From positions 12,092,001-12,156,000 of the forward strand of contig NC_045696.1 of assembly GCF_009834535.1 (NCBI RefSeq): DNA of 64,000 bases, written 5' to 3'. The notes below the pieces were generated by a model. The model was not told the origin of the DNA, did no database searches, and worked only from the letters and a program-made list of their open reading frames with translations. The stretch comes from Camelus ferus (lineage: Eukaryota). Each line of letters begins with the position of its first letter. Position 1 is the first letter of the stretch. The position numbers and the translations under genes are program-made. Shown piece by piece: positions 2,190-47,298 of this stretch.

Positions 2190-3788
2190 GTTGTCTGCAT
2201 TCCCTTGTAGTTAAATATATAATCCCTTCCATATATTTAAGGCTGGTCTTCTTAGCACTACACTGTATGACTTGGATAGTAATAGAGTTGACGGTTGAGT
2301 AAAAGACATAGGGAAATCTGTCCTGGATTGGGGCTCCATCAGTCAGAGGTGGCGAGGTTAGCTGAGTCAGTGACAGTCACCAAAGCTCAGGGGCTCACAA
2401 CAGCGAAATCCTTTCTCGTATTCGCCATGCCTCCTCCCTGGGCTGGCTGGGACTCTTTCTGTATGTTGCCCTCACTCTAGGACAGAGGCCTGGGGCAGCT
2501 GCCACCTGGGACATTGTCTGTCTCTTGGCAAAGGGGGAAGAGAAGAGGTGGTGAATCGGGTGCTGGCTCACTCCCAATTCACTTGTACAAGCAAGTCGCC
2601 TGGATGGGGGCCAGAGAAGTGTAGTCCTACTATGTGCCAGAAAGAGGAGAGTTAGAAAACCTGGTGAAAAGATAGAAAGGCCACTCCCTTGCCAGTGCTC
2701 TCTGAATGAACTTACGAGGCTTCTGTGCATTTGATAATCTTTAAGCCCCTTTCTGGGCTGCAGCATCTTCGATTCCTTCCGCAGCCTCTCCCGCAGGCCA
2801 CCAGTCTGTGTCTCGGAGCACTTCCTGGAGTGCTTTGGCCCCATGATGGGAACCTAATTTTGAACCCTGGCCACTTGCATTACACCTTCACGCTGTTTAC
2901 TTCTTGACCTTACGGTGAAAGACATCAGATAGCCAGCGGATGTTCTGGATGGCAAGGGATAGACGTGTGTGAGAGGCATATTGTGCAGCAGAGGCCTGGC
3001 CTCAGTAACTAAGCAGTAACTGGCAGCAGCGCTGTAAACAAGCATCTGCGTCCCCCGCCAAGTGAAAGGCACCACGACAGTCACTCTTTTCTCTTTGGTT
3101 TACTCAATTTCTCTTGAGTAACGGTAAAAATGTAGCAAGAAGCAAGAGAGGGCTGAATTTTGAAAGCTCTTGGAGTCAGATTCCAAGATTGGTTGGTTTT
3201 TGGACTCAGAAGCTCGGCATAAAACCGCTATACTTTCTTATACTTTTTTATTAAAGTGACCGAGTGCTCACGGGGCCTGTTTACATTTCCGCACTGAAGG
3301 TGTGGACGCGTCGGCCTCGAAGGTCTCGTCAGCAGTGCTTCTCACGCTACCTGACGCGCAGAAGCAGGGCGCTGGGGGGTTTGTTTTCATTTCAGATCTG
3401 TCCTGGACCACCACTGCTTTTGTAAACTACGGAAGCCCTTGCTTGTGTCAGCATAGGACGACTAGGTTCTCAGTGCAGAGTCTTGATTTCTGTCCATCCA
3501 TGGCTGTCAGTAGCAAACTGTCTGTAGCTCCTGGACCTCGCTTTGGAAAGCCTGCCATCCAAGGCTAATAACCTCCGCTAAACCATCCCTTCTCAGCGCC
3601 CAGTTGGCAGAAGATGTTCTCACAGCACATTGAGAAGTTCGAGTCTCCCAGTCCTAGAAGACAGGGTTGCATCTGACCTGAAAAGCCACCAAGCCTTCTA
3701 AAATCAGCCCATCTTGCTCTCTTGTTAGTCCCGAAGTGTGGCTTCCTGCTGTGCACAGGGTTCAATGTAAAAGTTCCTAGCACATGTC

Positions 3789-8192: not shown

Positions 8193-8279
8193 GGTTTTCA
8201 CTTTCTTCTGTGGAAGAAGATGGTGTCCGAAGGCTCTACGTGAACAGTGTGAAGGAAACTGGCTTAGCTTCCAAGAAAG
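8193..8279 (+). CDS. TIAM1: TIAM1 coding exon (phase 1 to 1), PDZ: (G)FSLSSVEEDGVRRLYVNSVKETGLASKK(G)
   Basis: Acceptor tctctgtgtttcctag and donor AAG|gtcggt. 87 nt, frame continuous with both neighbours. Confidence 0.95.
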
Positions 8280-11770: not shown

Positions 11771-13172
11771 CCCTCTTGTTTAACCAGTCATAATAAACCT
11801 GGAAATTCTTAAAAAAAAAAAAAACCTACAAAACTTGCAGATGTTTTTAGTTTTTCAGTCTTTTCTTCTTTTTTTCCATTCTATTACCTCCTCTAACATC
11901 TAACTGAGTCTTCTCCAAGAGAAAACTTAAAAAACAGCAGTTACTTTTCCCAGTGGAAATTTTGTATCTGCAATTCAAATATGATGACACCAAACTCTCT
12001 CACCTAAAAAATGGAACAGTTGGCTTCCCAGAAGTCAGCCTCCGACGCGGAGAAAAGCCTTCTCGTTCCATTGCCTTCCCACCCATGATGTTCCTGGGAG
12101 TATTTTATGATAGAAAGTTGATGTCAAGGATTTTGAAAGCTAAGTAAGAAAAGCTGGCCCGCGGGTGTTACTTGGTGAAGCTGGGACGTGAAAAGTTCTC
12201 TGTGGGATCATTTTTCTGCAGAATCAGAGGCAAGATGTGCAGATGCCTGAGGGGCTGCGTGGCCTCACATTTTGAGGTTCATCCTTTGTGCCCTTCGGTC
12301 ACTCCCTTCTACAAGTCTGTTTTTCCACATTAGTCTAGAAAATAAGAATCAGACTCCTCTTCTCTTCTTCCCTAACCTCTCCCGTTCTCAAGCTGCTGGA
12401 ATGTTCTTCTCATGTCAGGTGGAACTGCCCCGGGTTGGTCACGGCTTCCTGTTCTCTGAGGTCGGATCAGGCTGCTTCACGGCTGCTGCTCTGGGTCCCA
12501 AAATTTGGCAAGTCCTCAGTGCACTTTGCAAAAGTAGCAGAACCTTTGGAGACCTTCAAAAGATCATTTACCCTGAGGTCCTAATCTAGATTCAAAAAGG
12601 CGGGGGTGGCAAAAATGATTGCATTTGGTTCTATAAACTGTCGTCTCTAAATGTGTTTGCAATGGGATAACTGTCAGGGGTTGTAGCCGGAGGAAACTTG
12701 CATTTTGGTTTTGTAGAAATGATTGTTGGACACTGCTGTGTCACACGTGTACCCTGTCACATGAGCATGTACAAAACAGAGATTGCTGTAATCAGGGAGC
12801 ATTTCCATCTTTTCCCCTCGAAATTATAGGACGATAGCTTTAGCATTTAGAATTAGCATTTGCGAGGAGAAATCGGCAGATGCCAAGAGCACATAGATTC
12901 CAGAAGGAGTAAATTTGTTTCATTGGTGTATTCAGGACCAGAGAGGTGTGCCGTGACATCCGAGTCCAAGTCTAGAATCTTCTGACACCGAAGCCCACCG
13001 TGATCACCCGCTGATCCCTTTGAGCACTGCAGCCTGGCTGCAGCAGCACCTGTAACAAGAGCGCTCCATGTGCCCTTTAGAAGCAGGCCTCCAAAAAGCT
13101 GTGATCTGATTCGATGCTGCCACTGCTTTTATGTGTGTGCAAAATTAAACATTTTCCATCTCGCCTTGGCAG

Positions 13173-13397
13173 GCCTGAAAGCGGGAGACGAGATTCTCGA
13201 GATCAATCATCGCGCTGCCGGCACCCTGAACTCAGCCGTGCTCAAAGAGTTCCTCACGCAGCCGTCCCTGGGCCTTCTGGTGAGGACCCACCCCGAGCTG
13301 GAGGCGGGAGCCGAGCTGCTGGAGAGCCCACCCCACCGGCTGGACGGGCCCGCCGACCTCAGCGAGAGCCCCCTCGCCTTTCTCACCAGCAACACAG
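13173..13397 (+). CDS. TIAM1: TIAM1 coding exon (phase 1 to 1), C-terminal half of PDZ plus linker: (G)LKAGDEILEINHRAAGTLNSAVLKEFLTQPSLGLLVRTHPELEAG...AFLTSNT(G)
   Basis: Acceptor catctcgccttggcag and donor CAG|gtacgg. 225 nt, contained in ORF-track entry 13070..13666, with the classic PDZ GLxxGDxILxIN motif. Confidence 0.96.
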
Positions 13398-14875
13398 GTA
13401 CGGCTGGACACGGGGCTGCCCCCGGGCTGGGCCCAGGTCTGCAGGCACCCGGGCAGCCGCCCAGGCCACTTGCCTGTTTCCGTGGGCTTCCTGCGTCTGG
13501 CTATGGGAGTAAGCTGAGCCGGTTACTGAGCTTCTTGTGGAATGGCAAAGGGGTTGGGAAATTTTGTGCTGGTGGAAATTGCTGTTTTGCTGTAGATCCA
13601 CCTGTCATGTGGACGTCTTTGTCATGCTGCTGCTGTTTCTCATCTGGGAGAAAGATAGATGGATAGAGGCCACTGTCCCTTGGCTATGGACAGAGATTTC
13701 GAGACACAGGTGTGCCAGGAATCACTTAAGATGCTGGGGTTCTTGGTCTTACCCTTGCCTTCCACATCACCAAAACCAGCCGACCCTACTTTTCCTTGCG
13801 TAAGAGGAGGATGGGAGGTGAGATGCCCAGAGCAGAAATGTGCCCCAGAGCTGGTGTTTGGTTTACTTTTCTCTTGGGCTCCTCTGCCCTAGTGTCTGAA
13901 CGTGAGCCCGTCGGCGGAAACCCCTGCCCTGCCCCATCTGCTGCTTTTCCTGTTTACATCCTTTCCTCCTGCTCCCTCTAAAAGCAGCTCCTTCTAAGCA
14001 GCAGCTTGAATGCTACCTGCCCTGGGAGGCCTTCCCGGGACCCCACTGAGCTCCATCCTCCATCCTCGTCATGCGGGCCCTGCTCCGGTTGACTGTTCGT
14101 CCTTGCTTGTGTCTCTCCTGAATTTGTTTCCTGGGACTGCGCTCAGGTCTTACACAGGCACCCAGTCTTGTTCAGCAGGAGGATTAGGAACTGAGCCCAC
14201 TCGTGAATAGCGTATTGCCGTCTCTTATCCTCACTATGCCCTGCTTCTAGAGTTGGCGTTGATTTAGCTCGTTGGGGTTTGAGATTTATCTTCTTTTTAA
14301 AACTTGGGTTGAAAAAAAAAGTCTTCAGTTTCAACATCTGAGCGTAGGTACCTGGAGTATTCTTGTTTTTCAGCGTCCCTTCTGAAGCTTGGCTCGGTAA
14401 GAATGGATCACAAGCAGATGCCTTGTGACAGTTTATCTTTTTTTTGGTGGCCCCCTGGAAGAATTCAACAAGTTGAGGCTTCAGAGAATCGATCACACTT
14501 CGTTACTATTGACTTTTGACTCATTTTGTTGTTGCAATACCCACATGCCCGTCACATATTTGGAAGACGACTCCAGTGAGCTGTGTTCCCTTAAAAACAG
14601 GGAATGGGTACTGTGAAGGCTCTTCTTTTATGTCACCACAAGGTGGCAGGCTCGATCCCATAAAACTCAGTTCACATTTATTTCTGTAAAATGACTTTGA
14701 TTGAAGCAAAGTCTTAGATTAGGTTATTTAAAGGATTTTATAAGGTCTAGTTGTTTATGCTTCAAATGACAGTGTGTGCTTACCCCCAAAACAAAACAAA
14801 ACAGTGTGCGCTCAACCTTTTTTGGATCCCCCCCCCCCCGCCCCCCAGCCCTTCCTGTGGGTTATGGATAAGAAG

Positions 14876-26939: not shown

Positions 26940-27036
26940 TTTTTTTCCCTATTTTTTCCCCAAGTACTGGGAGTTGAACCCAGGACCTCATGCATGCCAA
27001 GCACATGCTTCACCACTGAGCTATGTCCCCCATCCC
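26940..27036 (-). mobile_element. tRNA-Ala-derived camelid-type SINE
   Basis: gtactgggagttgaacccaggacctcatgcatgccaagcacatgcttcaccactgagcta. Confidence 0.85.
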
Positions 27037-27199
27037 AAAACTAACATTTACTGAACTGAGATCATGGAGCATATACTTGGAGGGTCTAACAATATATGTG
27101 CGCATCATGAACTTGACCGCCATACTCCCTTGCACCAGTGTGGCTTTTAGCAGTTACAGTACGTTCTGACCCACGTTTCCTTCCCATTTCCTCTCGCAG

Positions 27200-27303
27200 G
27201 GCACAGCCTCTGCAGCGAGCAGGGCAGCAGTGCCGAGACCGCTCCGGAGGAGCCCGAGGGGCCAGACTTGGAATCCTCAGATGAGACTGATCACAGCAGC
27301 AAG
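27200..27303 (+). CDS. TIAM1: TIAM1 coding exon (phase 1 to 0), acidic linker: (G)HSLCSEQGSSAETAPEEPEGPDLESSDETDHSSK
   Basis: Acceptor ttcccatttcctctcgcag and donor AAG|gtgaga. 104 nt, matches recalled TIAM1 sequence. Confidence 0.95.
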
Positions 27304-28260
27304 GTGAGAGATTTCCATTTTCACATCCTCTGTCTTGAACCACCAAAGAACGTCACCTCTCCAGTTGTATGTGGTTAGGAGGCCCCTCCACAGGACCAAA
27401 GTGTTTTTACTTCTGAGATGTCACTAACTAGGATATGAAATCCAAATTAGAGCCTTGAGAACAAACCCATGTGTGAGGACACAGGGCAGAGATCCCTCTT
27501 GATGAGTTTAAGTCTAATTCTACCCTGTTTCCTTCTTATGCCTCCACTTGTGTGTGACGAAATGGCATCCAAAATGTGTACCGTGGGGTCAGTTTTACTT
27601 TCCTGCAACTCATGGTTTCTCTAATGAACTCCTTTAGCTCTTGAAAAGGTGAGCATCTTTTACATTAAAAGGAAGGAAACAATCTTTTTATTAATTCAAA
27701 CTCTGTTTCTCAGCTGGTTGCGCACTGTAACAAAGGTCTTATTCTGACACTTGGATGCAATTTGTGAATTTGTTTTCTATAATTCATCATGCTTTTATCT
27801 CCCTTCCTAAAGAGTCCATGTGTCAATAAACTCTTCTCATCATAGTCTCCAAAGTGTAACAATTTTAAAACTCAGTTACCTATATCCAAAGACTCCTCCC
27901 CAGTGGAAACAGGTGTGTGTGTGATTATGTTCCTGTATTTATTCATCTGTTTTTTTCAGAATGTTGTGAACATATTTATGTTGGTCGCTGTACCTATCTC
28001 CCATTCTTTTGTGACATTTACCTGTCACGTAACCTGAGCATATCATATAACTTTAAATTACACCTTTGTTTTCTCATCTACAGTATCAGGGTGATTCTTG
28101 ACCTTGTCCAGTGACTGGATGATTGGGTGGGTCAAGTAATATAATGGATATTGATAATGAAAAGATGCTTTTCAATTATGAATGATTATTTTAAAAACCT
28201 GCATTCCTACATGTGTACTTTTTTGTCTGTTTTTGTCTTTATGTATCTTTGTAGGACTTT

Positions 28261-28328
28261 TTTTTTTAATTGAAGTATATAGTCAGTTACAATATGTCAA
28301 TTTCCAGTGCACAGCATAATGTTTCAGC
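28261..28328 (-). mobile_element. Extremely 5'-truncated L1 tail with TSD
   Basis: ttttaattgaagtatatagtcagttacaat, flanked by exact gtaggacttt (28251-28260 and 28329-28338). Confidence 0.75.
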
Positions 28329-29715
28329 GTAGGACTTTCTTGACTGCATATGGGTGACTATCTTCAGCATCTTTCTACCCATATGTTTCTCTTTTGCCAT
28401 CTTGGGATCGTCATTCTCAGTGTCTAAGTTGAGCACAGTATAAAATTTAGTATTTGAAAATAACTTTAATGTTTAGAAATGTAATATTTATAGACTAACA
28501 GGTTTTATGTTGTTGGTTATGAGTTAAACAGCTAAAAAATGGAAATATACATGTTTCACTTAAAGCCAAAAAAGACAGACAAAAGCTTGCTTAAAGTTAC
28601 CTTTTATTTTTAAGGACTTTTACCTACCTAGGTAAGATATTTTGAAGGGTATTTATTAAATTGTTCTGTTACAGACACTGAAAATGTTAATTCTCAGTTT
28701 CTAATTTGATTTGGGAATACAGTTATTTTTCCTGGATCTAAGACGTTTATTTCTGAATACTTGGTCATTTGGATCATTTTTACCTCATTGCAATAGCCCA
28801 GTGTTCTCCTCCCCTTGTGGATTTTGAGAGATTGTTTCCGTTTTAAATATAGTGAGTCATGAGGTCCTCAACAGGATCCTCTATAATATTAGGTTCTGGC
28901 AGCCGAGAGGAAGGAAGAGGCTCCAGGGTTTTGCTGACTTACCCCAGGTGCCTGTCTGACTTCATGGCTCTTTCTCCAGAGAATTAGATGCTGAAACATG
29001 CCTGGAACAGACAGGGTCACGTGTAAGAACAGGCGACGCTGTTCCTGGATTTCACTGTAGAAATGCACGCTGGGCTCTCATAAAAGACAATTTCTTCGCA
29101 GTTATTGACAACAAGTTTGGGTGATGGATGATCTGAATATTGTTCAACTCATTGACACCATAGGTTCATAGTCCTTTTTTCTAGGTTGAATGTAGGGAGC
29201 ACTGTGTGATTCTGTACCTGAAAATACTCTTAATGTTGGTTTGATTCAGATTTTATCTTCTTTATTTGAACTATTTTGTAATGTAACCCAAGTTACTTAG
29301 ATAAAATAGTCTATAATGAGTTAAATTTCTCACTTAAGATATTTGAAAGCAAAAACCTGGGCAAATGGTTCTTGGAAATCGGGTCCTACTGTGTGTTATT
29401 AGTAGTAAATGAGATCTAATTCTTATGTAGTGTCATATATCTTGAGTGCTGTTCCATATTAACTCATCTCATCCTCACAGTATTCCTGAGAGAGATACTG
29501 TTATTCCGCATATTTTATAGATGACCATATTGGAACAGAGAGGTCAAGCAACTCGCTGAAGGTCACACAGCTCTGAGATAGCAAAATGAAGCTCTGTGTT
29601 AACTGCTTTGCTAAAACTACCTTCTCACCAGATTGTTAAGGTCTGGTATTAAATACCAGGTTTCAAAAAAAGGAAGGAATTAATTAATTAGTGGTACTAC
29701 AAGCCAATTTAGATA

Positions 29716-29915
29716 TACTGTTGAACCTTGGGGTTGAACTGCGAGGGTCTGCTTATTGGTGGATTTTTTTTTCCATAGTGGATCCTACTGTACTACCGAT
29801 CTGTGGTTGGTTGAATTTGAGTATATATAGAGGGCAGACTATAAGTCACATACAGATTTTTGACTGCACAGATGATCTGCACACCTAACCTTGAGTTGCT
29901 CAAGGATCAAGTGTA
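29716..29915. mobile_element. Tigger-family MITE (Tigger2/MER8-like)
   Basis: TA-flanked degenerate TIRs ctgttgaaccttg ... caaggatcaagtg, internal gttgaactgcgagggtctgcttat. Confidence 0.65.
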
Positions 29916-30849
29916 TATACTCATTAGCCACTTAAATATCTTCCTAATGCTTAAGCCTTGTGTGTGCATTTAAAAGAATGATTTAAAGTAAGAACAAGCA
30001 TATATCTTAAGCTCCTTGATTAAGGTTAAATGTTTTTTGATGTGGCTTCTTTATCCATGTATACTTTTTCTTGGGAATAAACCGACCATTAATATTTAAA
30101 TTGTAATTTACCTAAAAATGGAAGGATATTTTAGCCTTAATTTGAATGCACTGGGCTGCATGTAGAATGTGAAAAGAAATAAGTAACCAAACAAGTGAAT
30201 AAATGAAATGAAACAAGTAATCTTTTTTTTTTTTTTCATTCTGGCTGAATACGTGAGGGCTGTTGAATTTTTGTTTAATATTTTTGCTGTTCTTCTGAAA
30301 TGAATTGTTTTATGAAATATTGGACAGGATAAAGAGGGCACATGTTGGGAGTTTTATGTGTTTTAAAAATTTTTTTTAGATAGCAGTTTTTGCTGCCAGT
30401 GGTCTTTGGGGCTGAGGAAGTAGATAATTTCGAGTTTGCTGCTGAGCGGTGGTGGCACTGGAATGTCACATCCACGGAATGGGGGCTGGGACTTTCACAC
30501 CACAGGGGCAGTCTGGCGTACTTTCTCTTTTGTAAGCCGCCTCCTTCCTCTTGTGACTGTGGGTGACAACCTCAAAGAGCCACCTCCCCCCCACCCCCAC
30601 TTGTTTCCCTGCTTCTAATGGAAAACTCTTCTCTCTGAAAATGAATGCTAATTAGCTCTGGGCAGTCCTGTCCTGCATTCCAGACCCCCTGGCAACTGTG
30701 ATTTTGTTTTCCATTTAGCCAAAGTATTAGAATAATTTTCAGAGCCTTTCCAATTGGAAAGCCTTTTTAAAAAATCCAAATTGTTATTGTCTCAGACGCG
30801 TCTGCTTTTGTTAAGAAAGCATTGGGAGGGAAATGTGAACATATAAACT

Positions 30850-31355
30850 GTTAAAAACAATTTGCTTTTTCGTGCCCGCTCCCGACTGTGTGAGAGGTGT
30901 CTTCAAAGTTGTAGGAGCCTGCGGGTTTAGTAATCCTGTGCAGTGCAGGGGGCTGGCCAATCAGCTGATCTTGGTCCGCAGAGCAGAGCCGCTCACATCC
31001 CGGGGAGGCGTTTTGTTGCATTGTTTTCTTGCCTCTTGGCTCTCTCCCTTCCTGAAAGTTCTGTTTTGCCAGGTGAACTCAAAGCATGAGTTCTCGTCCA
31101 CGGGTTAGCCTTTGACACCCTCACAGAGGGCACTGACGGGAGGTGGGAGCCGCTCTCGGGGTCGCACGGGCGCTGTCCATTTTGCATGGAGATGCAGCCG
31201 GAGGTCTCCGTGGCAGGACCGGCATGGGCTGTCTGGACGAGAGGATGCTCTCTCGGGAGCCAGAAGGCATTTGGTGCTCTCCGAGTATTTTAAGAAACTT
31301 CTGTTTCTGTGCCGAGCACGTCAGGAGGTAGAATTGTCATGAGAATACACGCCTG
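30850..31355 (+). promoter_or_regulatory. Candidate internal promoter / 5' UTR of a short TIAM1 isoform
   Basis: Locally CpG-enriched with no repeat I recognise. GGCCAATCAG (NF-Y consensus) at 30955-30964 overlaps the E-box CAGCTG, directly upstream of the candidate first exon. Confidence 0.55.
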
Positions 31356-31445
31356 ATGATGTCTGCACTGTGGAAAATAAAGCGCAAGCCCAGGACTGAA
31401 AACAATGGCAAGTCTGGGGATTCTGTCTATCGGTCGCTTCGCGTG
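31356..31445 (+). CDS. TIAM1: Candidate alternative first coding exon of a short TIAM1 isoform: MMSALWKIKRKPRTENNGKSGDSVYRSLRV
   Basis: ATGATG at 31356, 30 open codons, donor GTG|gtgagc at 31446 in phase 0, matching the phase-0 acceptor at 36833. It sits at the end of a CpG-enriched, apparently repeat-free segment with a CCAAT box. Confidence 0.7.
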
Positions 31446-31679
31446 GTGAGCACTGTTTGAATTCTATCTTGCTTGCCTTGTGTATGTGACGACTTTCTAG
31501 CTGGCTTGTTTCCCAGTTCAGATGATGGTGGTTATGCTTGCCCCGTGTCCCCGTATTGCATCCTTCTGCCCTCCAGATTCCCTTGTTGATAAAGAATGTG
31601 TACTTTAGCTTGGGGGTGGGGCGTCGCTAACTGGTATGAAGTCAAGTTTGCCTGGAATCTTTATAAGTATCTATTTTTT

Positions 31680-31860
31680 CATTAAAATTTTTTAAATTGA
31701 AGTATGGTTGATTGACAATGTTGTGTTAGTTTCAGGTGTCCAGCAAAGTGATTCAGTTGTACTTAAATATCCTTTCTCAGATTCTTTTCCATTATAGGTT
31801 ATTACAAGATATTGAATACAGTTCCCTGTGCTGTACAGTAGGTCCTTGTTGTTTACCTAT
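31680..31860 (-). mobile_element. L1 3' end fragment
   Basis: ttgaagtatggttgattgacaatgttgtgttagtttcaggtg...gttccctgtgctgtacagtaggtccttgttg, same family as the 16420 element. Confidence 0.85.
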
Positions 31861-33625
31861 TTTTTTAGCTTTTAAATGGCAGGAAGATGGATGGCTACAA
31901 TTTTTCAAATTAAGCGTCTCTTGACTTTTTCCCCCTTTCTTCTGGTTGGTGGGATTGTGAACGTGTTTGTGTTATATGTGTGATGAGTCTCTCCACCCAC
32001 ACCTCCAATCAGGTAGCCTGTGTTCAGCAAGCATTTTTGGGAGGAGGATGTTCTACTTGCCTCCTATAAAGTTTTAAGTGCTTCTGACTTTATTTCTGCT
32101 TGCTTGAGAAGGAGGTGGATTTAGAAGTGTTGGCTCAAGGGATGTGTTAATGATGTAATGTCCACTGACCTATATTGTGCATGACAACTCCTGTGATAAT
32201 TGTTGACTCTCTAAGGAGAAAAATTTTTAGTGGGTTAATGGGGAGGCATAACTTAAAATCAAATTAAAACTTTTAAGAGTTTAATATTAATTTCAGAGTC
32301 TGCCAACTGTTAGATTTTGTGTCATTTAATGAAATTCAAACTCGGACAGTGAATACACTTGATTTACTCAAATAAGCCTTTATCCTCCCTGGGGTGTTTC
32401 TTCATCAAAGTTTGCTCGAAAGGAGACCCAGAAGATGACAGAGAACTCTAAGGATTATCATTGTATATGATGGTTCTGAAATTATGGAGTGTGTTACTTT
32501 GGTGTCTGTCTCCAAAAAAGGCTTAAATAAGGACAATAAGATTTTAGGCCAGTCTGGCCCCTTTTAAATCCGTGGGAAGTGTTAAAACAGTCAGACTCCA
32601 AGGACAGTTTTAGAACTCTGAACTCGTCTCGAGATAGAAGTTGCCTTTAGTGGTTGCATAACAGGAAGAGCGTTAACAGCTGGGTAGCTTGAAGTGCTAG
32701 TGTGTACTTAAAAGCCTTCTCCCCTCCTTTTGTACTTTCTTTTCATCTTCCACAGGAGGAAAGCGATATTCTAAACATTGCGCTTCGTGTCGACCTCAGG
32801 AAAGTAGCCCATTTCCTCCCGCAGTTGTCCCGTTGATCTCTGGATGTGGGCGGGTCATTCTTCGTCCTGACAGTGGAACAGCTCTGCTACCTGTGAATGG
32901 GTTTAGCAGCTCTGAAATGCCCATAAGTGCTTTCCATTTCCAGGGTGACTGATGGCTGTGCTCAAGGGGGGAGAGCTTTGTACTTCTTCCCATGGAGAGA
33001 TTGGGTCTGTCTTCTCCTTCTCCGCAGTCCTTCACTGCTTGTGCCAGTTCCAGGAAACTTGGCTTTTAGAAGTTGGTGGAGAATCTCTCATGGTAGCTCC
33101 CTTCCTGGGTACTTCTGGCTACACTACTTGATGTGTAAATGACCAGGATGCCACGTGACACTCAGTGATGGAGTGAGGAAGGCACTGCCCTTACCTCTTC
33201 CTATATCCAGTGTCATGGCTCAGCCATACAGAGGAGGTCCTGATGGAATTGATGCAAAGGCGTTTGCTCACAGGATGGGGGCAGGGGGACTTAAAAACTG
33301 GGCCAAAACATGCAAAATCTCTAGATTAAAATTCTAAAGACGACCTGCTTTTCATACTTGCTTCTAAGGACATTTGAGAGGTAATATTTCAGTAAAACAA
33401 AATTCTCAAACTTGATGAGGTCCTTTTAAGTTAATCGTTCCCGGACAAAAGTTTCATGAAGACCCTTATAAATAACACCCCTTAACAATATACACAGTAT
33501 AACTGGTTATTCTGTATGTTTTTATTTAAGTCAATTTATTTTATTAAATTTGTTTATTTATTTATTTAAATAATGTATAATTGACAGTAAAAGAAAATTA
33601 TGTCCATTTTGACCCAGTTCCCTGT

Positions 33626-33765
33626 TTTTTGTTTTTTTTCTTTTAATGAGCAGGTGGTAATTGGGTTTATTCATTTATTTCTATTTGGAGGAGGTGCTGG
33701 GGGTTGAACCTGGGACCTCGTTCATCTCAAGCATGTGCTCTACCACTTGAGCTATACTCTCCCCC
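33626..33765 (-). mobile_element. tRNA-Ala-derived camelid-type SINE
   Basis: gggggttgaacctgggacctc...ctctaccacttgagctatac, with imperfect TSD tgacccagttccctgt / tgacccatttccttgt. Confidence 0.85.
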
Positions 33766-36434
33766 TGACCCATTTCCTTGTGATAAAAGAGTTTATACAT
33801 TGAATCAGAGAACAGGGTTGCTGGTAGAGAAATTGCTTTGTCCCCTTGTCAACTTCAGAGACCACCTGGCTGAATCTATCCCAGCTTTGAAATGCATCTT
33901 GTAAGGAAGGGGTGCCTGAGGCTCTGAACTCTCAGAAGAGGACTCAAGGAAACTTTTAGGTGTCCCCTGGGATGCTAAAGATATTTCCTAATATAATCCA
34001 GGACCTGGTTCAGGAGGGGTGTGCCAGGACGAAGATGAGGGACGTAGCTGTTTGAGGTGAGGTTGGGTAAGAGATGGCTCGGTTTAAAGTCCTAGCCCAC
34101 ACCCCACTAACCTGAGCTTTCCCAGTGGGCCTGCTTGAAACTCAGGATACCAAACCTCCAAGGTGAAGGACTTAACGCAGGCAAAGCCAAGAACCCTACT
34201 TACACTCTTAAAATGGAGACATCAGAGTATTTATGGTGAAACAGAGGGGATGAAAACCCAGAAACTGCATCCCACGCCTTTCATCATTATAACCAGATAC
34301 TGCCATAATGGCAGCAAGTCAGTGTGGTGTGAATTGGGAGCACAAAGGGAAGTGTCTTTTAAATTTCCTGCCATTGATGTGTGTCAGAGTCCCAAGGTTA
34401 TAACTTAGCTTTTCTTCAAGTATGAGGCATCCTTGGTATAATCAGTGAGGACATTGGATTTCACATGGCAATTTGTCTAAATGATAAAACTACAGACACA
34501 TCTACTATGTCTCAGACGGGAAGGCAGTGATGGATTTATGTATCCTGAGTAATAGCCATGATGTTAATTTGCATGTAAATGACAAGCAGCTATAGTTATT
34601 GTCAGGACATTTAGAAAAGCATTGTGTAATTGAAGGTGCCAGTTATACATTTGTTGTGTTACTGAGTGACAAATCAAAGTGACAAAGGAGATTTTGGGAT
34701 TAGCTGGAGGGTAGAGCACTTAAGCTGTCAGCTATTATCACTGTCTTTCCATGGAGTTTTCATTTTGGTGAGGTGCCCCACCCCCCTCCATAATGTCTGT
34801 GTTATAATGCAATTGCCTGTTATGGTTATCATCAGATCATCTAAAAGATATGTGGACATTTTTGTTAAAATGGATCTACTTGTTCCTTTTTAAGTATTAA
34901 GACAAAGCCGTATTTAACTGTATAGTTAATGATGACATTGAGTTAGTAAAACCCTAATGTAACTAAATAAAATAGTTTAGTTTATTTCTACTGAAACAAA
35001 CTTTGATTACAAACAAGTAGTCTTTCTTTTTTAACAGCCTTATTGAGATAGAAATCACATACCATACAGTTCAGACCATTTTGGTGAGCTTTTCATCAGT
35101 CACCAAAAGGAGTCTTCTTTGTGGGGCTATTCTGCGTCTGGCATACCAGTTCCATAGGGAACATTTAACAGTGCCCCTGACAGGTGACTAACACATCCTG
35201 ACACATAAGACCCGGGTTAGTGCTAGCAAGAAATAAGTTGTGTAACCATAAGAGAATTGGATTAATAATTATGTGGATTTGGGTCCTGGCTCTTCTCTTT
35301 CCTGTCATGACATTGCTGCTGCTAATGCATCCTTGATAGGTTCTGATTTCCCATGTCCTTGTCCTGTCTTTATTTCTGGCTTCTTTCCCTTTGGGATACG
35401 CTAATGAGGGAAAAACATGTTAATGTTAGCTGCCTTCCTCTGTGTTTAAGAATTACCCTGCTGGAATACACTTGGTTTGTCTCCTCTGCCCTCCACAAAA
35501 TGCCAGCCTTGACTTTCAGCTCTGTGCACCAACAGTTGGTTTTGGAAAGCTGTTCATCTCAGGATGTTTGCTCTCAGGAGTGAGGAGGTAGGTGATAGAA
35601 GAAGTAATTCTTTATTTGCATAGGTCTGTATTGGAAATACCATATTGGGAATACTTTGCCTAGGGGTGAATTAGACAATAGAACAGGGAAGAGACGTACA
35701 AGAAGGCAGCCAGTCCCTTCAGGGAGCTATGCATCAAACATTTGTAGAGTGGTGCATTTGAACAAATATCAATAAACTAGATTTTGTGCTACAGAATAGC
35801 CTTTGGAGTAATTTTGTAGAGAGCTTTAAAAAATTCTAACACTTGCACATCCCATTCCAGAATTCCGACTGAATTGCTCTGGAGGGGGCACTGGATATCG
35901 GGAGGTTTACAAACTCCCGCAGGTGATTCCTATATGCAGCCAGGGTGGAGAACTGCTGATTCCCCGGTGTTTTCAGCAGTCCGTCTATAGCCCTTGTTTT
36001 GGAGAGCTGTTTTGCATAACTAGACAAGCTGGAATTTTAGAATTCTAGAATCCCCAAATTCTACCTGAATCACCCTGGACAGAGATTGGGTGAGGACTGA
36101 GTTCTATTGAGGTCTTGTTTGGGGCCCAATGCCCCTTATTTTTAGCTGGAGAAGGGAGGTGATGATGGGTGGTGGTAGTGGAATCTATCTGTCTTGGAGA
36201 AGCTGGAGAGAGAGAAATTTTGTTTTTTAAAAAATGGGTATCTGTTGCTATCTAAAAAGTTGCCTTGGTGTCAATTTTTAACAGAGACAGGAAGAATCTT
36301 AGCTTGTAAAATCATCTTCCAGCTGTGCAAAGTAAGTATGTATAGTGCATTGAAATAAGAGCCTGATAATTAGCCTTGTATTTTGGGTGGAACGCACTTG
36401 GCTGTATCTCCGTCTCCTCATTGGTGAGCTTCTT

Positions 36435-36650
36435 GCAAAATGGTTAAGGACACAGGCTTTGAGCTACACTGCCTGTTTCAAATCTGAGCTGTGCAATCTT
36501 GAATGAGTTACTTGACATCTCTGGGCCTCCGTTGTCTCTGCTGTTAAATATGAATGATAACAGCCCTTACTTACCCTATGGAAGGATTAAATACATCAGA
36601 CCAGTCTGGCATGCCGTGATCACTCAGTATACATCAGCAGTCATTGTTAT
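36435..36650 (+). mobile_element. MIR remnant
   Basis: tggttaaggacacaggctttga...ttcaaatctgagct...agttacttgacatctctgggcctc. Confidence 0.65.
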
Positions 36651-36832
36651 GGTTGTTTTGAGCATTCAGTGAGCTCTCAGATGTGTGGAGCAATGTAGGG
36701 AAATGAGAGATGTGATTCGTGCGTGGCAGTTCATTAACCAGGAGGAACATCTGCAGGAGGGGCAGATGTCAGGCAAGTCTCTCTAGTGAGGGATAACTTC
36801 ATCTGCCCTGCCTTTTCTACTGTGCTCTGAAG

Positions 36833-37012
36833 AGCACAGAACAGGTGGCCGCATTTTGCCGCAGTCTGCATGAGATGAACCCCTCTGACCCGAGCCCGTC
36901 CCCCCAGGACTCCGCGGGACCTCAGTTGGCCACCATGAGACAGCTCACGGATGCCGATAAGCTGCGCAAGGTGGTCTGTGAGCTCCTGGAGACGGAGCGC
37001 ACCTACGTGAAG
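36833..37012 (+). CDS. TIAM1: TIAM1 coding exon (phase 0 to 0), start of DH domain: STEQVAAFCRSLHEMNPSDPSPSPQDSAGPQLATMRQLTDADKLRKVVCELLETERTYVK
   Basis: Acceptor ttttctactgtgctctgaag and donor AAG|gtacgt. 180 nt, contains the DH CR1 motif ELLETERTYV. Confidence 0.96.
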
Positions 37013-37482
37013 GTACGTCTTCTCCTGCCCTCCCTCCCTGCATCCTTCCTCCCGTCCTTCTGAAGGATGAACTTGTGTGTTTATCCTGATTTTGGCTAAC
37101 AGTAAAGCCAAATCATGCTAATGAAGAGTATCTTGGTCTCTCCTATGGAATTTGGCTTTAATTCTGAATGTTTCAATCTCCTTTTGTGTTTTAAGGAAGC
37201 ACAGCTATTCTTGTAACAATTGATTGATATAAATAACTGATCAGTTGACTCAGAAAGGGGATGATGGTGACTATTAAGTGAGCCTTCTGACTTTTCTAAA
37301 AATGTTGTTTAGTTAACACTAAAGTTGCATTCGTTTTTGGCAAATTTAAGTAGCAGCATCGTCAAAATTACCTTTGAGTTTAGGAAGAAGGATATTAGGT
37401 CTGTTTTGTGTTATCTGTTCTGAATTTAGTTATATTTCTGTGGCTATATAATTTATTCCCATATAATTTATAATATATACAA

Positions 37483-37855
37483 CTGTAGTTTAAAAATGAT
37501 TAAAGAAGACCATTTCAAAGTGATACAAATTTTATTTAAAACTTTATTCATGAAGTGGACAGTCTCCTTTTGTAGAACTGTGAAATGGGGCTGGAGGCAA
37601 GAAGCTTTTATAGGATAAAGAATAAAGAATAAGGAAGGGACAAACAGAAAATGTCTGATTGGCTGCGGCCACACAGTCAACCTTGTTGGGGTGAGAAAGC
37701 TCCGAGTTGGCTCGGCATTTGGAAATTGGCTGCCTGGATATATTATGCTTCTGGTCAAGTGGTATGTTGACAGGGACCCAGAAGATCTCTAAATTTAGGC
37801 TTGCGGACGTAGGACCATGAGTGACTCCATCTTGGGCCTCGACAGTTATTGCAAT
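37483..37855 (-). mobile_element. Probable ERV solo LTR, antisense to TIAM1
   Basis: On the minus strand CCAAT (37658-37662), TATAAAA (37606-37612) and AATAAA (37543-37548) occur in LTR order. Family not identified. Confidence 0.55.
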
Positions 37856-38010
37856 ACTGTATAATTTATAATATATTCTATAACTCTCTAACTCCTCTAA
37901 CTATAATAGTTGTAGGATTATATACTTCTTTAACTGTATAATTTAGTTATGGAGAGTTATATGTTAGAACAGTATGATCTGTTTTTAATGATATGTTTTG
38001 GTCTTGAAGT

Positions 38011-38325: not shown

Positions 38326-38394
38326 GACTTAAACTGTCTCATGGAGAGATACCTAAAACCTCTTCAGAAAGAAACTTTTCTCACCCAAGATGAG
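38326..38394 (+). CDS. TIAM1: TIAM1 coding exon (phase 0 to 0), DH: DLNCLMERYLKPLQKETFLTQDE
   Basis: Acceptor cctttcaacccttag and donor GAG|gtatgg. 69 nt. Confidence 0.96.
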
Positions 38395-38700: not shown

Positions 38701-38826
38701 CTTGATGTGCTCTTTGGAAATTTAACTGAAATGGTAGAGTTTCAAGTCGAATTCCTTAAGACTCTAGAAGATGGAGTGAGATTGGTACCTGATTTGGAAA
38801 AACTTGAGAAAGTTGATCAATTTAAG
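38701..38826 (+). CDS. TIAM1: TIAM1 coding exon (phase 0 to 0), DH: LDVLFGNLTEMVEFQVEFLKTLEDGVRLVPDLEKLEKVDQFK
   Basis: Acceptor ttcttttccattttccag and donor AAG|gtatgt. 126 nt, contains the DH LFGN motif. Confidence 0.96.
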
Positions 38827-43714: not shown

Positions 43715-43823
43715 AAAGTGCTGTTCTCTCTGGGGGGATCCTTTCTGTATTATGCTGACCGCTTCAAGCTCTACAGTGCCTTCTGCGCCAGCCACACGAA
43801 GGTCCCCAAGGTCCTGGTGAAAG
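43715..43823 (+). CDS. TIAM1: TIAM1 coding exon (phase 0 to 1), DH: KVLFSLGGSFLYYADRFKLYSAFCASHTKVPKVLVK
   Basis: Branch-point consensus ACTAAC at 43685-43690, acceptor ttcattaaatccag, donor AAG|gtgagg. 109 nt. This is the last TIAM1 exon I can find in the window. Confidence 0.96.
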
Positions 43824-47198: not shown

Positions 47199-47298
47199 NN
47201 NNNNNNNNNNNNNNNNNNNNNNNNNNNNNNNNNNNNNNNNNNNNNNNNNNNNNNNNNNNNNNNNNNNNNNNNNNNNNNNNNNNNNNNNNNNNNNNNNN
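47199..47298. other. Assembly gap (exactly 100 N)
   Basis: Read directly. 100 N is the usual placeholder for a gap of unknown size. Confidence 0.99.

Follow-up and report, generated by a model that had tools for sequence, protein, structure and literature searches.

A conserved alternative first exon of the known short DH-PH isoform of TIAM1 in a camelid genome

Introduction

The N-terminus of TIAM1 is described in a review as autoinhibitory (PMC7156542), and isoforms of the protein have been mentioned in passing in other papers (PMC5062600, PMC8017594). Within the open-access literature, with most subscription journals outside this scope, there is one functional study of a short form and none of its leader. 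That study (PMC8551657) concerns two human N-terminally truncated DH-PH forms, NP_001340613.1 (71 kDa) and NP_001340614.1 (68 kDa). The cDNA of the longer one was sequenced from glioblastoma cells and the protein was detected. Lgl1 phosphorylation rose when the short form was overexpressed and fell when every TIAM1 species was knocked down. In some glioblastoma cells the short form can replace PREX1, and the authors anticipate that it is constitutively active. The results and discussion sections on the short form call the two proteins splice variants, report no localisation, and mention neither a leader nor an internal promoter. A 70-kDa TIAM1 form is also seen on westerns of mouse brain, together with a 75-kDa caspase product (PMC3613160).

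The engineered C580 and C682 fragments and the 75-kDa caspase fragment have the same DH-PH-tail content as the short form but are without its leader. C580 and C682 Tiam1 are cytoplasmic and induce neither ruffling nor JNK activation, and addition of the 20 N-terminal residues of c-Src, which carry a myristoyl group and basic residues, to C580 restores membrane location and ruffling, although not JNK activation (PMC2139766). Caspase cleavage is likewise said to abolish activity (PMC3613160), whereas the naturally occurring short form showed activity in the Lgl1 assay (PMC8551657).

Two further systems invite comparison. The paralogous short form TIAM2S (NM_001010927.2) has its own promoter and consists of DH-PH only, without PH-CC-Ex, RBD and PDZ (PMC7408714), which bears out the analogy with TIAM2 drawn in an earlier note on the DNA studied here. 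Other Dbl-family GEFs are autoinhibited by a Tyr-bearing helix that precedes the DH domain (PMC8260174, PMC4601183). In Vav1 (Tyr174) and in Ephexin/Ngef, such a helix lies N-terminal to DH, as does the putative Tyr-bearing helix of the TIAM1 leader; this is a resemblance only, and not evidence of homology, DH docking or phosphorylation.

Here, we report a computational analysis of an alternative first exon of TIAM1 in a 64-kb stretch (64,000 nucleotides, hereafter the window) of the Camelus ferus genome, with an emphasis on the conservation of the leader peptide that this exon encodes and on the roles that the leader might play. All features described below lie on the forward strand.

Results and discussion

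The leader exon encodes the N-terminus of a known short isoform

The segment at 31356..31445 is almost certainly the coding part of an alternative first exon of the known short (624-aa, ~71 kDa) DH-PH form of TIAM1. The 90 coding bases predicted in the earlier note, which begin with ATGATG at 31356 and comprise 30 open codons, were verified, and the encoded 30-aa leader is identical at 30/30 positions to the N-terminus of Camelus bactrianus TIAM1 isoform X3 (XP_045373798.1, 624 aa). This protein, a predicted and not a curated RefSeq model, is identical to the window at 191/191 residues across five exons, and no difference was found. Of the two Met codons, the second (31359) is the one conserved as the start of the leader; the A at -3 of its codon, which had been singled out earlier, is present but is a trivial consequence of ATGATG. 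The 5' splice donor GTG/gtgagc (31443..31451) places the start of the intron at 31446, and phase-0 joining to 36833, as had been proposed, leaves the frame open to the start of DH. Originally called good, this donor is real and in phase 0, but its strength is moderate: it ranks 101 among 3848 GT sites and scores 3.2 bits on a simple general weight matrix for donor sites, by which the constitutive donors next to it reach 6.5 and 5.6 bits. The leader alone matches no Pfam family. The camelid leader ends in Leu-Arg-Val (31437-31445), where 20 of the 21 other mammalian records have Leu-His-Leu and one has Leu-Arg-Leu.

The product had been expected to be an isoform of about 620 aa that lacks PHn-CC-Ex, RBD and PDZ. 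It is in fact 624 aa long, versus 622 aa for the mouse form, and Pfam detects only RhoGEF and PH in the short forms, as opposed to the full domain set in the 1591-aa form. TIAM2S, by contrast, probably begins at an internal Met and is not known to carry a leader of its own. The suspicion that such an isoform might already be annotated proved justified as well, by camel XP_045373798.1 and by the curated mouse Tiam1 isoform 2, NP_001139359.1 (622 aa; UniRef E9Q1R7). The mouse protein has an orthologous leader joined to the same exon and the same RhoGEF and PH content as the camelid one; its leader is 28 aa long, has one Met and ends in TLHL where the camelid leader has SLRV. A search with the 42-aa reading frame returned three proteins among three candidates, including a 657-aa monkey TIAM1 in which the leader stands at the start and is followed by the same shared exon.

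The human pair, too, probably carries this leader, judging from mass, domain content and ape orthologs: primate records of 624 and 599 aa compute to 71.0 and 68.2-68.3 kDa, which equals the human 71/68 kDa pair. The human variants are stated to differ by "exon 20" (PMC8551657), whereas the 25-aa difference in the camelid corresponds to an alternative acceptor at 36908. The isoform is thus already catalogued, in camel, mouse and human records, and adds nothing new to annotation.

Public sequencing runs were also searched, with the region 30850-31500. At least half of the words of this region are contained in 20 of the 24 runs listed, 4 of which are recorded as RNA and come from one study with a reproductive-system label; the query includes ~55 intronic bases, such that spliced RNA, pre-mRNA and DNA are indistinguishable in these counts, which therefore carry no weight as support. 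The spliced junction in the camelid is implied by the RefSeq model.

Gene structure around the leader exon

Exons of long TIAM1 upstream of the leader were located by tblastn at 1177-1258, 8193-8279, about 13173-13397 and 27200-27303. The last of these (27200..27303; boundaries refined on the tblastn match), found in long TIAM1 only, encodes an acidic segment that ends in DETDHSSK. It also ends in phase 0, and the leader exon and this exon are therefore interchangeable at 36833. The first shared exon (36833..37012), which encodes the conserved STEQVAAFCRSLHEM helix, a linker and the beginning of DH, is identical to XP_045373798.1 at 60/60 residues and matches the Tiam1 DH-PH structure 1FOE (E 6.5e-9). 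It is followed by DH exons at 38326..38394 (23/23 residues identical to the same protein, with AG/GT ends), 38701..38826 (42/42) and 43715..43823 (36/36). Beyond the latter, the last DH exon in the window, tblastn gave no more matches within the window, and the remaining exons lie outside it. An assembly gap of 100 N (47199-47298) falls in the intron that follows.

The STEQVAAFCRSLHEM segment (36833-36877), just before DH, lies outside both the 1FOE match and the Pfam domains. Six of its residues, Q34, V35, F38, C39, R40 and H43, one of them a Cys, are invariant in 55/55 sequences.

The shared exon contains an alternative in-frame acceptor 75 nt downstream of its start (36908..37012, AG at 36906-36907). 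Use of this acceptor gives the 599-aa (68 kDa) variant, which keeps the leader and loses 25 residues, including the STEQ helix. The leader is joined at an acceptor of this type in seven records, from horse, primates and birds, of 599-615 aa; in the camelid, the site is a candidate, suggested by the in-frame AG together with these records from other species. A grasshopper-mouse model uses a donor within the leader and so keeps the basic part and loses the Tyr motif described below. Several turtle, squamate and frog models begin at a Met 15 residues into the shared exon.

A putative internal promoter

The region 30850..31355 is a putative internal promoter and 5' UTR, marked by CpG content and a CCAAT box. 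CpG enrichment, as reported in the earlier note, was confirmed: 30850-31451 has a GC content of 54.5% and 30 CpG, with an observed/expected ratio of 0.68 versus 0.30 in the window, and 0/106 tiled 602-bp windows match it in CpG ratio or CpG count. The enrichment is only modest. Near 2900-3500, the ratio is higher in two sliding 500-bp windows (0.75 and 0.72), and the exon region 12800-13500, with 37 CpG, exceeds the 30 CpG of 30850-31451. The 2900-3500 segment is a second CpG-enriched intronic patch (ratio 0.67, 24 CpG), possibly an enhancer or another promoter; it has no match to the N-termini of the retrieved TIAM1 proteins.

The element GGCCAATCAG, noted earlier, was found at 30955 and is the sole copy in the window; the CCAAT box is at 30957. 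CCAAT with the flanks typical of NF-Y sites occurs five times in the window, and taken alone it is a weak signal. Strict GC-box and TATA patterns are missing from 30700-31360; the window has 27 copies of TATAAA, one of them at 30842. A search of 27000-38000 against Rfam gave no matches. STAT3 is reported at the promoters of "all Tiam1 isoforms" (PMC5062600, Supplementary Fig. 2), which may bear on the internal promoter.

Six ATGs precede the leader (31086, 31186, 31192, 31224, 31245 and 31339), none of which opens into it. The last begins a five-codon upstream ORF (31339-31358), the stop codon of which, TGA, shares bases with the leader's first ATG (TGATG). Depending on the position of the transcription start site, these upstream ATGs and the ORF possibly contribute to translational control. 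A camelid stop at 31329-31331 closes the frame upstream of the leader ATG, and the N-terminal extension of an Oryx model aligns to the window in two different frames; the broken upstream frame is what is expected of a 5' UTR, unlike coding sequence. An N-terminal extension of the leader from the upstream ATGs was considered and rejected, since the stop closes the frame. Two GT donors at 31073 and 31143 (3.3 and 3.0 bits) score near the leader donor and could be the ends of non-coding first exons.

Promoter and splice signals alone are only suggestive here; it is conservation and annotation that make the exon solid.

Phyletic distribution of the leader

A search with the first 90 residues of the 657-aa monkey TIAM1 found 146 proteins among 163 candidates, of which the best 120 were taken; with cluster members added (at most 15 per cluster), the set comprised 192 records. 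By an automatic rule, the leader motif stands at the N-terminus in 90/192 records, 83 with the 36833-type acceptor and seven with the acceptor 75 nt downstream. The other records have an internal leader (2), a long-form-like sequence (32), another short start (51) or no recognisable junction (17). Predicted (XP_) models make up most of this support, and the records share common descent.

The leader is found in mammals, birds, turtles, lungfish, paddlefish and teleosts, and among the last of these in paralogs of both types. Conservation of the peptide and its start Met across vertebrates, the check proposed in the earlier note, thus extends from fish to mammals. Among the matches listed, the leader is absent from all named records of amphibians (13), squamates (5), crocodilians (1) and sharks (1), which is weak evidence of absence in a search seeded with a mammalian sequence. 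Some frog and paddlefish models have very short starts (3-5 residues) joined to the same exon, which suggests that these lineages use another internal first exon.

For the conservation analysis, 82 leader records were picked by hand (22 mammal, 6 turtle, 12 bird, 1 lungfish, 1 paddlefish and 40 teleost), all of them within the 83 found by the automatic rule; given this motif-based selection, the conservation figures that follow are partly circular. A profile built from the 40 teleost leaders recognised all 42 non-teleost leaders, with at most 42/2000 shuffled sequences scoring as high; the number was 0/2000 for 25 of the 42 leaders and 8/2000 for the camelid one. As judged from sequence comparison, the leader appears to date back to the ancestor shared by fish and mammals and to have been retained; the putative internal promoter, which lies in the intron that follows the PDZ-region exons, is in all probability ancient as well.

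The junction motif and a predicted amphipathic helix

The strongest conservation in the leader is in a C-terminal motif at the splice junction (31419..31445). Counted back from the junction, Ser is found at -8 in 80/82 leaders, a hydrophobic residue at -7, Leu at -3 in 81/82 and Leu or Val at -1 in 82/82. Position -9 is D or E in 75/82. Tyr occupies -6 in 69/82 leaders, including 22/22 mammals, and Tyr or Phe in 77/82; the replacements of Tyr (F, C, L, H or S) number 13/82. These positions are constant while leader length varies between 20 and 30 residues.

The motif also continues the helix encoded by the next exon. A block of 24 residues, nine from the leader and 15 from the next exon, is amphipathic in 9/9 records (p 0.0005-0.009). 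On two hydrophobicity scales, the hydrophobic face of the last nine leader residues is within 45 degrees (maximum 28) of the face of the STEQ helix in 82/82 leaders, compared with one and two of 19 long forms. When the nine leader residues were shuffled, p fell below 0.05 for 79 and 81 of the 82 leaders on the two scales, versus zero and one of the 19 long forms. This register is one inherited arrangement and not 82 independent trials, and a single random draw has a 1/4 chance of falling within 45 degrees. The signal requires the next exon: the 11 residues of the motif alone are not significantly amphipathic (p 0.09-0.26), and the 11 N-terminal leader residues do not exceed shuffled sequences in 9/9 records (p 0.09-0.59).

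Structure prediction was less informative. An AlphaFold2 model of the 624-aa form from a 55-sequence alignment was weak (mean pLDDT 53, pTM 0.38); residues 1-33 have no structure in it (pLDDT 27-33), and the STEQ helix is at ~49. Prediction of a complex between residues 17-46 and DH-PH (64-445) scored 0.00 twice, with a procedure that used no alignment and is unvalidated for peptides; this value counts neither for nor against docking.

The basic N-terminus

The basic patch KIKRKPR (leader residues 7-13, 31374..31394) was the key motif of the earlier note, which proposed that it acts as an NLS or as a membrane-binding patch. The exact heptamer is mammalian. Basic character as such is general: 82/82 leaders are net positive (+1 to +6), and 3-6 of their first 14 residues are K/R. 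The 30 long-form residues that the leader replaces have a net charge of -7 to -10 in 7/7 sequences. As a membrane-binding patch the segment thus remains plausible by its charge. The emphasis on KIKRKPR as the central motif and as an NLS found little support, given that conservation is best at the junction and that the classical monopartite NLS core, K-[K/R]-x-[K/R], occurs in 0/22 mammal, 0/6 turtle, 0/12 bird, 0/2 lungfish/paddlefish and 8/40 teleost leaders. A Src-type anchor, which combines a myristoyl group with basic residues, requires Gly2. This residue is found in 0/82 leaders, 78/82 of which have Ser, and the leader is therefore not myristoylated and not an anchor of that type, although its charge and helix may give it a comparable action.

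Alternative explanations of the exon and its leader

The best overall explanation of the locus, and very probably the correct one, is an internal promoter and a leader exon that give rise to the known short isoform. Under one alternative, the segment would be a cassette exon of full-length TIAM1, entered through the AG at 31330-31331. This AG fits the frame, which stays open as far as the donor, and the leader is internal in two GenBank predictions (grey whale and pangolin) and one trout model. However, the acceptor has only 8/20 pyrimidines, the Oryx model reads Tyr where a stop codon in the window supplies the AG, and 90 records begin at the leader versus two with an internal leader by the automatic rule, plus the grey whale prediction; furthermore, the start Met is conserved and the sequence upstream of it is not. 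We regard a cassette exon as very improbable. A chance intronic ORF, or an annotation propagated between species without expression, might be suspected from the moderate donor, the commonness of CCAAT and the six upstream ATGs, but this possibility appears effectively refuted by the conservation of the leader across bony vertebrates, including both types of teleost paralogs; in addition, the mouse record is curated and the human cDNA has been sequenced (PMC8551657).

Alternatives for the function of the leader are harder to separate, and they are not mutually exclusive; a leader with little specific function accounts for the remaining probability. The basic patch as an NLS that directs the short GEF to the nucleus is a rather improbable one. 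The functional bipartite NLS of TIAM1 has been mapped to aa 684-710 (PMC5425402), which are missing from the short form, nuclear roles of TIAM1 are known, and all 22 mammal leaders have five K/R in the first 14 residues. Yet the monopartite pattern is absent from all 42 non-teleost leaders, basic residues move between lineages while the hydrophobic motif stays, other basic runs exist in the PH domain and tail of the short form (XP_045373798.1), and an NLS leaves the junction motif unexplained. That motif could instead be an autoinhibitory helix of the Vav/Ephexin type, bound to DH and freed by tyrosine phosphorylation, which would make the short form a regulated one. Any resemblance in sequence to the Vav and Ephexin helices is presumed, which weakens this reading. 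In most leaders the spacing between the Tyr and the junction is constant, with conserved hydrophobic flanks and usually D/E at -9, the amphipathic register is compatible with such a helix, and the motif is retained, nearer to DH, in the 599-aa variant; its place N-terminal to DH is also that of the Tyr-bearing helix in other Dbl-family GEFs autoinhibited in this way (PMC8260174, PMC4601183). Against this, the Tyr is lost in 13 of the 82 records, the weak AlphaFold2 model gives no confident leader structure, and Lgl1 phosphorylation increased when the short form was simply overexpressed (PMC8551657); overall, we consider such a phosphorylation-released helix distinctly unlikely. A docking site for a still hypothetical protein partner, such as a polarity or scaffold protein, in place of lipid or the DH domain itself, is unlikely too, if quite conceivable. 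Conservation of the particular residues S, Y, L and L, with six further residues invariant in 55/55 sequences, is tighter than lipid binding would usually need, but the STEQ half of the helix is constrained in the long form as well.

A model for the short isoform

In the model that we tentatively prefer, a promoter located after the PDZ-region exons would drive the alternative first exon, the 30 codons of which are spliced in frame to 36833. The product, the known 624-aa form, consists of the leader, DH, PH and the C-terminal tail, without PHn-CC-Ex, RBD, PDZ and the mapped NLS, and would thereby escape autoinhibition by PHn-CC-Ex. The leader would put a basic N-terminus in the place of an acidic segment, and the motif at its C-terminal end would lengthen the helix of the next exon into one amphipathic helix of ~24 residues. 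The continuous hydrophobic face and net positive charge, as computed from sequence, are those of an amphipathic membrane-binding helix with a basic patch. Together, patch and helix would hold the GEF at anionic membranes, the site of Rac1, in place of the lost PHn targeting. That the leader acts in this way, as a replacement for lost membrane targeting, is possible, although still doubtful. Such replacement would reconcile the inertness of the leaderless fragments with the activity of the natural short form. By analogy, the rescue of C580 by c-Src residues would count in favour of targeting by the leader, but the c-Src segment included a lipid and the leader is without Gly2, which counts against the mechanism, as does the loss of the STEQ half of the helix from the 599-aa variant.

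A bolder combination, which we consider unlikely, is that the amphipathic helix built by splicing from two exons is a tyrosine-controlled switch that docks either on DH or on the membrane and gives short TIAM1, as a Rac GEF, a gating of its own. The acceptor at 36908 would then tune the switch by removing half of the helix.

Conclusions

Reagents directed against 5' TIAM1 exons or N-terminal epitopes would be expected to miss the short isoform. DH-PH fragments that lack the leader do not arrive at the membrane, whereas the short form found in nature, with its conserved leader, is active, and the conservation pattern provides a specific set of residues for mutation of the leader. If the two-exon helix proves to be a switch, short TIAM1 would not be the constitutively active fragment that it has been assumed to be.
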